The notes beneath the pieces are model-generated. The model did no database searches. It saw only the letters and a program-made list of their open reading frames with translations, and was not told the DNA's origin. A program made the position numbers and the translations under genes. From Microcoleus sp. (GTDB lineage: Bacteria; Cyanobacteriota; Cyanobacteriia; Cyanobacteriales; Microcoleaceae): a stretch of DNA of 64,000 nt. The stretch covers positions 637,507 through 701,506 of the forward strand of contig JAYFMW010000030.1 in the NCBI GenBank assembly GCA_042408215.1, in the 5' to 3' direction. Of the stretch, positions 10,256-58,722 are shown one piece after another; within the stretch, counting starts at the first letter, position 1; each line of letters opens with the position of its first letter.

Positions 10256-11452
10256 ATGGCTTTAGGTAGACACAAGCGGGCTGTAGGATCATTTTCTAAT
10301 TATCGAGATACTGAACTCGCTCTCAGGGAACTGCAAAGTGCAGGGTTTCCGATGAATAAAGTTTCGGTAGTCGGGGAAAATCTCGATCGAGGCAAAATTG
10401 CTGGTGCTAACGTCAGCAAGAGTAGCGAGGAACAAGTTGGCGGTGGCGCCTCATCAGGGGCGACAGCGGGAGTTGTGACTGGGGGTTTGATTGGGTTGCT
10501 CGGAGGTATTGGTGCGGTGGCGATTCCGGGAGTGGGCCCGGTGATGGCGGCGGGCGCTCTTGCAACTCTGCTGGCCGACACTGCTTTAGGAGGCGCGATT
10601 GGGGCGGCGGCGGGAGGTTTAGTTGGCGGTTTGGTCGCTTTGGGAGTTCCTGAAGACAAAGCTAAAATTTACAGCGATCGCATCTCGCGCGGAGAATATT
10701 TGGTATTCGTAGAAGGAACAGATGCCGAAATCGCCACAGCCGAAGCAATTTTCAGGGTGCGGGGGATTCAAGATTGGGGTATTTACGACGTACCGGCACA
10801 CACCCATCGCAGAGCTTCGGGCCGCCACAAACGCGCTGTGGGCGTATTTTCCACCCGCCGCGAGACGGAACAAGCGCTCACAGAGCTTAGAACTGCTGGT
10901 TTCGACATGGATCGGGTTTCTGTCATCGCCAAGGATGCTGACTCCCAAGGCGAAATCGCAGGGATTGATGTGGAAGACAGCGCGGATCGCAAGGTTGATG
11001 AAGGTGCCACCAAGGGCGCCCTCACAGGCGGCGCTTTGGGCGGTTTGACTGGTTTGTTGGTGGGTCTAGGTTTGCTGGCAATTCCGGGAATCGGGCCGAT
11101 TATGCTGGCTGGAGCTGAAGCTACGGCGATCGCCACTACACTTGCTGGTACAGCTTTGGGAGCGACTGCGGGTGGCTTGATCGGAGCTCTAGTCGGTTTG
11201 GGAATTCCCGAGGCAGAAGCTAAAGCATACAGCGATCGGGTAGCTCGCGGAGATTACCTGGTACTGCTCAACGGAACTGAGGCAGAGGTCGCCACAGCCG
11301 AAAGAATTTTCGGCCGCTCCGGCATTCAGAATTGGAGTATCTACGACTATCCCAGTGTGGATACCGCTCGCAGCGATTACGGTGTTCCGGGCGCTCCTGG
11401 TGTTGATACCACGGCTGACCAAAAAACTGGGATACAAGCCCCGTCCTTCTAG
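10256..11452 (+). CDS. General stress protein (YflT-like domain plus glycine-zipper helices, internally duplicated); C-terminus altered by a mini-IS
   Basis: Two GRHKRAVG...IPG(V/I)GP...WGIYD repeats. The native C-terminus (IYDPNQGVSSSRRR*) lies at 11603-11647 beyond the insertion. Confidence 0.8.
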   Translation: MALGRHKRAVGSFSNYRDTELALRELQSAGFPMNKVSVVGENLDRGKIAGANVSKSSEEQVGGGASSGATAGVVTGGLIGLLGGIGAVAIPGVGPVMAAGALATLLADTALGGAIGAAAGGLVGGLVALGVPEDKAKIYSDRISRGEYLVFVEGTDAEIATAEAIFRVRGIQDWGIYDVPAHTHRRASGRHKRAVGVFSTRRETEQALTELRTAGFDMDRVSVIAKDADSQGEIAGIDVEDSADRKVDEGATKGALTGGALGGLTGLLVGLGLLAIPGIGPIMLAGAEATAIATTLAGTALGATAGGLIGALVGLGIPEAEAKAYSDRVARGDYLVLLNGTEAEVATAERIFGRSGIQNWSIYDYPSVDTARSDYGVPGAPGVDTTADQKTGIQAPSF

Positions 11453-11602
11453 GACGGCTTTTTGCTAGAATACAGATAGTCGCCGAGCGGGCATTGGGAG
11501 ACTCTAAACGGACGTGGAGCGACGGTAAGACTACCGCTTGCGGAGCGCGTTGCTATGAAGCGTCAAGGAATCCCCGCACCTTTAGGTCGGGGAGTATGTC
11601 AA
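11420..11602 (+). mobile_element. 183-bp non-autonomous IS200/IS605 derivative carrying an omega-RNA-like sequence
   Basis: TGAC target, same left-end hairpin as the elements at 3110 and 39774, body homologous to the tnpB 3' end at 40973-41094, ends in TCAA; excision restores the host reading frame. Confidence 0.85.
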
Positions 11603-11691
11603 ATTTACGACCCAAATCAGGGCGTTAGCAGCAGCCGTCGGCGGTAAGTGACCTCAGCGTTTGCGAATCGAGATTGAAGCGCCAAATAATC

Positions 11692-11730
11692 TCAAAAGTC
11701 GGCAATTTCCGAGAAATTGCCGACTTTTGA
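11692..11730. terminator. Perfect 18-bp stem-loop, probable intrinsic terminator
   Basis: TCAAAAGTCGGCAATTTC-CGA-GAAATTGCCGACTTTTGA, downstream of the native stop at 11647. Confidence 0.75.
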
Positions 11731-37891: not shown

Positions 37892-38056
37892 ATACCAATT
37901 TAATAGGTCGTTGCATATATTTCGATCCCCCTAAATCCCCCTTAATAAGGGGGACTTTGACCACCCTCTTGTCCCACACCCCCTACTCCCCTACTCCCCT
38001 TATTAAGGGGGGTTAGGGGGGATCAGATTCTATGCAGCCTCATAAAAAATTGGTAT
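37892..38056. mobile_element. 165-bp MITE, abutting the truncated IS607 tnpB
   Basis: Near-identical to 21198-21362. Confidence 0.8.
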
Positions 38057-38758
38057 TACACCTAACTTTTTATTACCTAATTGCTTTTTCCAATTTCTCC
38101 ACTGTTCTTTACTCAGCTTGGTTTTCGCTTTTTTGAGTGGACGGGGAGACTCAGAAAATTTACCATCCGAAAGAGTAGCAAAAGTTGATACTCCTAAGTC
38201 AATCCCTATGGGTTCAGCAACTGGATGGAAAAGCGGTGGCATCTTTTCGGCTTTGATTGCGAAGGAAATATACCATTTATCTGCTGTGCGTGAAATAGTG
38301 AATGTCTGTGCTACGCAGGGGAATGGTATTGATTCTTTTTGCCTAAATTTTCCGAGAGTGGGGATTTTGATCGACTTCTTCGCCGCCAATAAAACTGCAT
38401 GATTCCCATCAGTGGCATCTACAGTAAACGAATCACCATCTTTTTTCCTTTTGAACTTGGGAAACTTACCTAATCCTTTAAAGAAGCGGGATAAGAACTC
38501 GCTAAAATGCCGGAATGTCATTCTGCAAACCCTGGAAGATCGGGTTTTAGTCCATTGATATTCCGGTATCTTTTTGACGTGATTGGTGAAAACTCTTTCG
38601 ATCGCTGCTACTTTTTTGCTGCTACCACCAGGGAAGCTTTTTACTTCTTGGTAAAGACTTAAAGCGTAGTTGTAACAAAATTTTGCCTAGCCAGAATGTC
38701 GCGCCATCAAGGTACGTTCCTTGTTATTTAGTTTGAGTTCTAGGTTGATGGCGTACAT
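38057..38758 (-). pseudogene. tnpB: IS607-associated tnpB with nonsense codon, frameshift and 3' truncation
   Basis: MYAINLELKLNNKER...SG*; FPKFKRKK and GIDLG present; ends at the MITE. Confidence 0.8.
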
Positions 38759-38764
38759 ATCTGA

Positions 38765-39367
38765 TTACAATTTTTGAGCAATTTCTTTGAGTTCTGTAAT
38801 TATTTGCTTGTTTTTGTGACTTCTACTTCCGTAAAGACGGGCGGAAAATACTGCGATAATTTCCAGCACATCTTGAGCTAAGTCTTCTTCAAAAGAAGCA
38901 TCCTCGGTTCTGTTAATAATTACGATTTCCGTCCCAAAATGTTCGCATAAACTAAAAATTAGTTCGGAACCAAATCTTAACAGTCTATCTTGGTGGGTAA
39001 GTACCAACCTCTCTACTTGACGATCGGTAATCATTTTAATTAATCGCTGCAAACCTCGTTTGTTATAATTGAGTCCAGAGCCTAAATCTTCAATTACTTG
39101 GAACTGCCAACCATGAGTTGAACAAAACAACTCCAAAACTTGTTTTTGCTGTTCTAAGTCGCTTTTTTGGTCATAGCTGCTAACTCTGGCATAACATACG
39201 GTCAAAACACCATCAGGTTTTATACCTAAAAGCTGATTCATGCTATACCGTCTATGACCATTCGCTGTACGTTCTGGGACTAACTTACCTTCGGATTCCC
39301 ATCGCCTCAAGGTTGAGGCGCTTACGCCTTTTAGTTTAGCGGCCTCAGAGATGCTTAACTTACTCAT
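38765..39367 (-). CDS. tnpA: IS607-family serine recombinase TnpA (MerR-like HTH)
   Basis: LRRWE...GHRRY HTH; YARVSS, DLGSG and DRLLRFG motifs. Confidence 0.92.
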   Translation of the reverse strand: MSKLSISEAAKLKGVSASTLRRWESEGKLVPERTANGHRRYSMNQLLGIKPDGVLTVCYARVSSYDQKSDLEQQKQVLELFCSTHGWQFQVIEDLGSGLNYNKRGLQRLIKMITDRQVERLVLTHQDRLLRFGSELIFSLCEHFGTEIVIINRTEDASFEEDLAQDVLEIIAVFSARLYGSRSHKNKQIITELKEIAQKL

Positions 39368-39773: not shown

Positions 39774-41094
39774 CAAAGAATTGGGCGGAGCGAAGCGGAG
39801 GGCTGAAGCCCCGTCCTTTTAGGACGGCTTTAATTATTCCTAATTTTATTGGCAGAACCTAGTATAATAGAACAAGAATACAACCAAAAAGAAATGAAAG
39901 CAAGGTATCGCTACAGAATCTATCCGACCGACCAACAAAAACAGAGCTTGGCTCAGTTATTTGGTTGCGTTCGTGTAGTCTGGAATGATGCTCTTGCACT
40001 TTGTAAACAGTCTGAGAAAAAGCCCAAATCAGCTCTTCTTCAGAAAATAGTAATCACTCAGGCGAAACAGGCTGAGGAAAGAAATTGGCTAGAGAATGTG
40101 TCATGCGTTCCCTTGCAGCAGTCTGTAATCGATTTAGAAACGGCTTTTCAGAATTTATTTGACTCTTGCCAGGGGAAAAAGAAAAGGAAGAAAAGTACGT
40201 TATCCTCGATTCAAAAAAAGAACCAACAGTCAATCGGCTAGGTTTACCCTTCGTGGTTTTTCCATGAAGAAAAACGGTGGAGTCTATTTAGCCAAGATTG
40301 GAATTGTTAACCCAATATTGTCGAGGGAATTACCATCAACACCTAGTTCTGTTACGGTAATCAAAGATTGTGCCAATCGCTATTTCTTGAGTTTTGTTGT
40401 AGAAGTAGAACCAGTTCAAGTTGAAGCCAAGAATCCAAGCATCGGAATCGATCTAGGAATCAAAACTTTTGCAGTAATGAGCAATGGCGAAAAAGCCGAA
40501 AGTCCTAGCTACAAAAAGCTAGACCGAAAAGTTCGCCAACTGCAACGCAAGTTAGCTCGCCAACCAAAAGATTCCAAAAGAAGGAATGCAACTCGCATTA
40601 GAATTGCCAAGTTGCACAATCAAATTGCCGATACCCGCAAAGACTTCCTGCACAAGTTGTCGACCAAAATAGTCAACGAAAACCAAGTGATTGTTTTGGA
40701 AGACCTCAAGGTGTCAGGCCTGGTCAAGAATCGGAAGCTTTCTCGTGCAATTAGCCAGCAGGGGTGGTACGAATTCCGAACACTTTGCGAGGCTAAGTCG
40801 GAGAAGTTTGGCAGAGAATTTAAGGTAATTAGCAGATGGGAACCCACTAGCCAAATCTGCTCAGGCTGTGGTTTCAAGTGGGGCAAAATCGATTTATCTA
40901 TTCGTTCGGTACTTTGCCTAAACTGTGGCACAGAACAAGATAGAGACGAAAATGCTGCTAGAAATATAGAGAAAGTCGGGATAGGGCATTGCCACGACTC
41001 TAAATGGGCGCAGAGGGACTGTAAGACTGGCTTGCTAGCAAGACCCGATGAAGCGTCAAGAATCACCGCACCGACCGGGCGGTGAGTATGTCAA
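39774..41094 (+). mobile_element. IS200/IS605-family tnpB-only element
   Basis: TCAC target, left end GAAG-CCCCGTCCTTTTAGGACGG, right end GAAT-CACCG...CGGTGAGTATGTCAA. Confidence 0.85.
39894..41085 (+). pseudogene. tnpB: TnpB, frameshift in an A run near 40175-40190 (possible sequencing error)
   Basis: MKARYRYRIYPT, GIDLG, VLEDL, CSGCG/CLNCG and DRDENAA across two frames. Confidence 0.85.
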
Positions 41095-58553: not shown

Positions 58554-58722
58554 TTGACATACTCCTCTGGCTAAAGCCTAGAGGATTCTAGGGTCAAACA
58601 GCGATCGCAGGCGCAGCCCGTCTTACATCACCTAACCTAACGGTCGATGCCCCGACAACGTATGATTTATACCATAGCTTCTTATGCCCTAAAGGGCAAG
58701 GCTTTAAACCCATTATTTTTTG
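58554..58722 (-). mobile_element. 169-bp non-autonomous IS200/IS605 derivative carrying an omega-RNA-like sequence
   Basis: On the minus strand: TTAC target, CAAAAAATAATGGGTTT-AAAG-CCTTGCCCTTTAGGGCA left end, GAAT-CCTCT...AGAGGAGTATGTCAA right end. Confidence 0.8.

Follow-up and report, generated by a model that had tools for sequence, protein, structure and literature searches.

We identified a 183-bp protein-free element in a 64,000-nucleotide stretch of Microcoleus sp. DNA (hereafter the window) that runs from an IS605-type left end through a -10 box and the scaffold of a TnpB omega-RNA to a right end (Table 1). Elements of this kind (PATEs or stand-alone omega-RNAs) have already been described (Meers et al., 2023; Altae-Tran et al., 2023). 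On balance, we consider it fairly likely that this non-autonomous PATE is also a stand-alone TnpB guide-RNA gene, whose product would be loaded in trans and home to the empty allele. The gene-less element retains both ends, a putative promoter and an intact guide-RNA scaffold, and probably borrows the TnpB of other elements to recopy itself into sites that it has left.

Table 1. Features of the element, its surroundings and the elements compared with it. Positions are those of the window unless a contig (C) or locus (L) is named.
Feature	Position	Strand	Remarks
Host gene, YflT-domain stress protein	10256..11452	+	
Insertion motif TGAC (host DNA)	11416..11419	+	Directly 5' of the element; at 13/13 genome copies and at the G012 empty site; predicted TnpA left cleavage site and predicted TnpB TAM
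PATE, protein-free IS605-type mini-element	11420..11602	+	183 bp, no target duplication
Left-end DNA guide CAAG	11435..11438	+	Covaries with insertion motif
Left-end hairpin, then T run	11441..11457	+	Terminator-like; loop region contains new stop codon of host gene
Extended -10 box TGCTAGAAT	11463..11471	+	Predicted RNA start at or just before 11478
Omega-RNA stem 1	11478..11503	+	AGUC 11478-81 with GACU 11500-03; CC with GG
Pseudoknot, 5' strand GGCAU	11490..11494	+	Enclosed by stem 1
Omega-RNA stems 2, 3a, 3b	11511..11564	+	GACGU/GCGUC; GCGACG/CGUUGC; CU-CCGC/GCGG-AG
Right end	11568..11602	+	GAAT guide; hairpin 11571-11593 = RNA stem 4; pseudoknot 3' strand AUGUC 11596-11600; terminal TCAA 11599-11602
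Predicted 16-nt guide ATTTACGACCCAAATC	11603..11618	+	From 3' flank (host gene tail); position by ISDra2 analogy
Bidirectional terminator-like hairpin of host gene	11692..11730	.	
Related TCAC-type tnpB element, for comparison	39785..41094	+	tnpB frameshifted; left boundary approximate
Second gene-less IS605 mini-element, another family	58554..58722	-	TTAC motif
Longer gene-less elements, own genome (G000)	C30:248491-248779, C14:9651-9939, C5:595257-595595, C6:457016-457355		
Longer gene-less elements, further loci	L043, L044, L046, L063, L028, L033, L047		
Small hairpin repeats	C17:184942, C17:666634, C5:404619, C5:6613, C7:215904, C6:457016; window ~39797-39812		

The features that the original prediction assigned to 11420-11602 were each found where it had placed them. 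The 183 bp contain no open reading frame of at least 50 amino acids, and host frames merely extend into the element. The host protein has 398 amino acids with the insertion and 402 without it, its final 14 residues being exchanged for 10 and the new stop codon (11450-11452) lying inside the left-end hairpin. This hairpin and its T run scored as a terminator. Excision of the element in silico joins DTTAD directly to IYDPNQGVSSSRRR and the stop codon (402 amino acids), confirming the proposed in-frame rejoining of the host gene. The host gene's own hairpin further downstream would cap a guide-RNA precursor. The host protein is internally duplicated, with two YflT stretches that each end in a W.IYD.P motif. 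The GAAT/TCAA naming of the element's right end is of the IS608 type.

BLASTN of the element's own genome gave 164 matches, 13 of which are full-length copies (182-204 nt, 82-98% identity). All 13 directly follow TGAC, a motif with a genome frequency of 0.004; the five-base motif is TTGAC for 10 copies, ATGAC for two and CTGAC for the copy at 11420-11602. Since these copies have different 3' flanks and all lie at TGAC, the observation of the element is not due to chance. The further copies with different flanks that had been anticipated thus exist, and the element is not a single-copy sequence.

At 18 orthologous loci within the genus, the junction is empty in 15, carries the start of the element in two and is ambiguous in one. 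In the two filled relatives, the element starts at the same junction and then reaches an N gap or the contig end. We rejected G008 as the carrier of a mostly deleted element, because a gap of Ns lies there. A single ortholog (G012) has both an intact TGAC and a perfect match to the 16-nt guide at the empty site. Target duplication is absent from empty sites, and one contig from RNA run X2 omits exactly 11420-11602. The comparison of copies and junctions shows that 11420-11602 moved between sites. A search of a plasmid collection gave seven partial matches and no full-length copy, and hence no tie to a published transcription-start map.

The near-terminal hairpins are IS605-like. A classical MITE was rejected, given the absence of terminal inverted repeats (ends CAAAAAAC.../...GTCAA) and of duplication at empty sites. 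The left end is common to the tnpA/tnpB element at C20:496072, and the right end is common to tnpB elements. Across elements, the left-end guide and the insertion motif vary together (CAAG-TGAC, AAAG-TTAC, GAAG-TCAC and AAAA-TTAT), a DNA guide-motif pairing described for IS200/IS605 elements (Meers et al., 10.1101/2023.03.14.532601).

Most copies (10 of 13) overlap no rejoined frame of at least 100 amino acids. The copy at C17:50458-50641 lies near the end of a 298-aa frame, two codons short of its stop, and that at C30:202823-203004 breaks a 542-aa frame at residue 82, on the opposite strand. Two metagenome loci (L209 and L281) occupy the same sites as the copies at 11420-11602 and C30:202823, and differ from them in right-end loop or guide bases, i.e. 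by change after insertion.

The guide of 11420-11602 is complementary to the host gene's own tail, and the element supplies that gene with a stop codon and a terminator-like hairpin. Both points are consistent with a guide RNA that the host has domesticated to regulate the stress gene, or other targets, by means of a TnpB devoid of nuclease activity. We regard such a role as highly improbable, because the insertion is missing from 15 of the 18 relatives, the copy in the 542-aa frame interrupts it, the candidate partner described below retains its D-E-D residues and the guides of the 13 copies are unrelated. None of these guides has a second site in the genome with three or fewer mismatches, and self-targeting or regulatory targets were rejected on this ground.

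The scaffold is homologous to the 3' end of tnpB and ends at the right-end TCAA. Its sequence from 11478 onward aligns colinearly with 40974-41094, the 3' end of the neighbouring tnpB, and contains every shared word listed in the original prediction. In the ISDra2 TnpB omega-RNA, a scaffold of ~120 nt forms stems 1-4 and a pseudoknot that ends at -3C, and the guide comes from the 3' flank (PMC10097598). All 28 proposed pairs of an ISDra2-like fold, including the pseudoknot, are intact in 11420-11602, where disrupted pairing had been named as a possible refutation. The ISDra2 RNA overlaps its own tnpB and serves a TAM of TTGAT, whereas the mini-element RNA has no gene and has its own -10 box.

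Folded alone, 11478-11602 is no better than shuffles (z 0.20), and the case for structure therefore rests on covariation. Across stem 1, the pseudoknot, stem 2 and stems 3a/3b of 25 gene-less elements, 93.3% of cells are paired and 15 of 27 pairs have double-sided changes; these measures, like those that follow, are inflated by kinship of the sequences. None of 500 shuffles was as high, and slid controls gave 29-44%. For the pseudoknot, 99.2% of cells are paired, with double changes in two of five pairs. RNAalifold, unprompted, recovered stems 1, 2 and part of 3a and missed 3b. We also scored stems 2-3b by themselves in 33 minimal elements, as the search pattern had left these stems mostly free: 92.9% of cells are paired and 9 of 15 pairs changed on both sides, with 5 of 500 shuffles reaching the double-change measure and none reaching the other four.

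The scaffold of the C20 element scores 126.6 bits against a model built from gene-less elements alone. Rfam gave nothing at the gathering threshold for 11420-11602 (HgcC came closest among relevant families, with 19.6 bits and E 0.037, where the threshold is 50 bits) and 0 matches at this threshold in 20 loci. Most insertions and variants that distinguish the 13 copies lie in loops or exchange one hairpin for another. A fold of the RNA of 11420-11602 like that of the ISDra2 omega-RNA is thus supported by comparison among elements.

A metagenome scan with the scaffold alone gave at least 120 loci. Among the matches listed, 72 have a left end at no more than 40 nt and 18 at 41-400 nt, 12 were sorted as tnpB, 13 lack a detected left end and five are truncated. 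The sequence TAnnnT lies within 5-9 nt 5' of the scaffold in all 35 distinct spacers of the 72 minimal elements listed; the same box precedes 2 of 34 tnpB-borne scaffolds. For the 12 lineage-like spacers (13-28 nt long), the box always ends 6-9 nt before the scaffold (shuffled spacers: mean 2.6 of 12, maximum 8 in 5000), and nine carry the TG extension (shuffled mean 0.23). In the genome that carries the element, TGnTAnnnT comes immediately after the left hairpin in 21 of the 34 short elements without genes, 1 of the 74 with tnpB and 2 of the 51 unclassified ones. In named cyanobacterial genomes, a long sense tnpB match follows 2 of 112 left-end-plus-box matches (full flanks for 80 of 111 loci).

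This constant spacing to the scaffold start points to an RNA gene that starts near 11478, and we predict that the -10 box is its promoter. Contigs from RNA libraries (4 of 24 runs) contain the element, including the left end; they give no strand, start or end. The box was also considered as a remnant of the tnpB codons for A-R-N-I; we rejected this as a general account, since the 12 lineage-like spacers have little in common besides the box, but it may hold for this lineage.

The 13 copies differ mainly by block variants. Multi-base right-end hairpin variants occur with left-end-loop and loop-1 variants in all four combinations, which implies that exchange between copies happens. Intact structure could thus partly be resupplied by conversion. 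Such exchange, together with derivatives that lack nearly all of the scaffold (L054 and L268), agrees with a passive PATE moved by TnpA alone, whose scaffold and -10 box would be remnants that persist by chance or are renewed through recombination with full-length elements. Passive movement seems quite unlikely to us, since it does not explain a -10 box held at a fixed distance in divergent spacers (every one from the matches listed) and wanting in the tnpB parents, nor compensated stems 2-3b in a branch without a genuine tnpB-borne member among those sampled, nor the confinement of most variants to loops and hairpin swaps. A functional guide-RNA gene remains our preferred reading.

IS200/IS605 elements are very abundant in the genome (134 TnpB-like loci, and 159 left-end hairpins of the single type seen in this element), which has 20 matches to Y1 transposases. 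We identified a complete IS605 element at C20:496072-497746 with the same CAAG/TGAC left end and unbroken frames, which encode a 132-aa TnpA and a 395-aa TnpB (C20:496550-497734) with D185, E268 and D350. The C20 TnpB matches ISDra2 TnpB with an E value of 1.8e-59. The original prediction had expected a cognate TnpB elsewhere in the genome, and this locus is a TGAC-type TnpA/TnpB candidate for that role. It had also set aside the neighbouring tnpB element, which does have TCAC as its insertion motif; with this other motif and a tnpB split by a frameshift, we likewise rejected the neighbour as parent or partner. Just upstream of the frameshifted tnpB, the window contains a 200-aa open reading frame and then a 163-aa tnpB-like fragment (38030-39367, minus strand); by eye, the product of the 200-aa frame resembles an IS607-type serine recombinase.

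Residue 120 of TnpB is associated with the insertion motif. Among 44 TnpBs of the clade with a called motif (uncalled rows left out; rows related, L289-L382), Gly occupies this position in 22 of 23 TGAC elements and in none of 21 others, which have Arg (4 of 4 TCAC) or Asn, Ala, Gln, Ser or Thr (17 TTAC/TTAT). No other scored position shares as much mutual information with the motif as residue 120. Gly120 also accompanies TGAC in a clade that is just 62-64% alike (L340 and L343). The residue lies in a WED loop aligned with ISDra2 T123/N124 (PDB 8bf8/8h1j), in a register uncertain by two residues, and T123/N124 contact the TAM (PMC10097598). The Gly120-TGAC association and the position in the TAM loop suggest that the C20 TnpB probably reads TGAC. 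Residue 120 is a candidate TAM switch (G: TGAC, R: TCAC, N/A: TTAC/TTAT).

Stem 1 of the C20 RNA has the form GG/CC, and that of the mini-element has the form CC/GG. Since the TGAC-type TnpBs of this genome carry the GG/CC subtype, cross-loading of the mini-element RNA is assumed. Resident tnpB elements with CC/GG stem 1 follow TTAC, TTAT or CGAT and have Asn or Gln at residue 120, and one long gene-less body is found joined to TTAT-type as well as TGAC-type left ends (C30:248779 and C14:9651). The RNA might accordingly be a decoy or mismatched guide that loads TTAC/TTAT-type TnpBs of the CC/GG subtype, which are unable to cut behind TGAC, and titrates the nuclease. We consider this unlikely: 66 of the 72 minimal elements among the metagenome matches listed lie at TGAC (one at TTAT, five uncalled), as expected if the motif must match the nuclease, and L340 and L343 combine TGAC with both the CC/GG subtype and Gly120. 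Moreover, TnpB reads its RNA mainly via the backbone (PMC10097598), and the stem swap may not matter.

We examined 10 genomes picked for such elements and found a Gly120 TnpB in eight (unbroken in five) and no TnpB of this clade in G024 and G150. Because 36 of 41 genus genomes have the clade in any case, this survey is no enrichment test.

In the mechanism that we favor, the TnpA of an autonomous element would move the PATE from one TGAC site to another through scarless excision and insertion of a single strand. The element's own -10 promoter would, judging from its conservation, produce an RNA of ~125 nt plus flank that starts near 11478. A TGAC-reading TnpB such as G000:C20:496550-497734 would load this RNA, and the complex would cut the empty allele (TGAC followed by ATTTACGACCCAAATC), left by excision or present on the sister chromosome. 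Repair from the filled copy would then restore the element, as in the mechanism of Meers et al., which was shown for full elements (10.1101/2023.03.14.532601). Given that 10 of 13 copies lie at TTGAC, a five-base TAM could make the CTGAC site in the window a poor target.

The element apparently combines a gene-less scaffold of old descent with ends gained by exchange, and did not arise from its neighbour through a recent deletion. Deletion of the protein, as originally proposed, holds as an old event and fails as the origin of this copy: none of the 39 tnpB-borne cores sampled is more than 81% alike to the core of this scaffold, which belongs to a gene-less branch. In a tree of 87 cores, which serves as a hint (86 columns, bootstrap unsettled, pattern-led sampling), 42 of 48 minimal cores from many cyanobacteria fall on this branch (98/98). 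The sole row sorted there as tnpB proved to be a gene-less element of the longer sort, located behind a tnpB element (L176/L180). The remaining six minimal cores are placed among tnpB cores, which suggests that gene-less elements arose more than once.

In G146, a full TGAC tnpB element has the left end of the minimal elements of related genomes and the other stem-1 subtype. A scaffold model, which matches tnpB-borne scaffolds too, matched 21 of 101 genomes of the phylum; the 20 besides the element's own all belong to its order. With rather less than even confidence, we suggest that minimal elements may form a long-lived gene-less lineage of filamentous and bloom-forming cyanobacteria, specialised for TGAC and with a promoter at the guide-RNA start, that swaps ends with resident full-length elements and homes via any resident Gly120 TnpB.

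The second gene-less mini-element in the window has a different left hairpin, a TGGTATAAAT box and a shorter scaffold related to the tnpB ends at C6:1057766 and C20:683877; it has three identical genome copies (C30, C28 and C3). Longer gene-less elements (~290-430 nt) have an extra conserved domain of 100-250 nt between the -10 box and the omega-RNA. This domain occurs as several sequence types, some with GGGCAATG..ATCC..GAAG in common, had no match in Rfam and is possibly the more novel lead. Among the metagenome matches listed, TTAT/AAAA left ends were counted in 15 elements but in one minimal element, which suggests that longer elements prefer TTAT. Small hairpin repeats of ~15-28 nt are inserted in element loops and left ends, usually with the hairpin retained, and exact micro-inversions account for some of the loop variants.

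PATEs were defined in Haloquadratum walsbyi (PMC3119063). Like the element described here, they have near-terminal palindromes, no terminal inverted repeats or target duplication, are too short for a transposase, show strain-specific insertions and are often hit by smaller repeats. They differ in being archaeal and in predating omega-RNAs, and no RNA function is proposed for them in the portions of that paper available to us. In Geobacillus, PATEs have been described as frequent carriers of omega-RNAs that depend on TnpB supplied in trans (Meers et al., 10.1101/2023.03.14.532601). Those of Geobacillus stearothermophilus likewise combine the lack of an open reading frame with IS605 ends, motif-guided insertion and an omega-RNA proposed for TnpB in trans. 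The elements described here differ in being cyanobacterial, in their promoter-like box fixed to the scaffold start and in covariation within a gene-less branch. In the accessible text of that preprint (10.1101/2023.03.14.532601), the service of TnpB in trans is asserted and not put to test, PATE RNAs are untried and no promoter is named.

A PATE with IStron ends is also shown elsewhere (10.1101/2023.11.20.567912), and stand-alone omega-RNAs that act in trans with OMEGA effectors are known, their role being called unknown (PMC10691335, citing its reference 1). Like our element, these are RNA loci that are mobilised, lack both effector and transposase, and share their genome with effector loci. 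The in-trans test of a stand-alone omega-RNA by Altae-Tran and colleagues in 2021 reportedly used IscB, not TnpB. A literature search, with subscription papers and preprint supplements largely beyond its reach, found nothing on cyanobacterial omega-RNA PATEs or their promoters, and the accessible parts of a Nodularia paper and of a review (PMC13565253) do not mention such elements.

What is known about this kind of system is unchanged by our finding. The locus provides a complete natural test set in one genome, with a mini-element, its exact empty allele and an autonomous TnpA/TnpB element of the same motif. The family offers a scaffold that is minimal (~120 nt) and would have its own promoter, as well as a residue that is a candidate for switching the TAM; both may be useful for compact editors. 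If the reading as a long-lived gene-less lineage is correct, the single position 120 would act as the TAM switch (G: TGAC, R: TCAC, N: TTAC/TTAT). The element would then be a natural parasite of an RNA-guided transposon, and its homing in trans could be tested with one defined pair.
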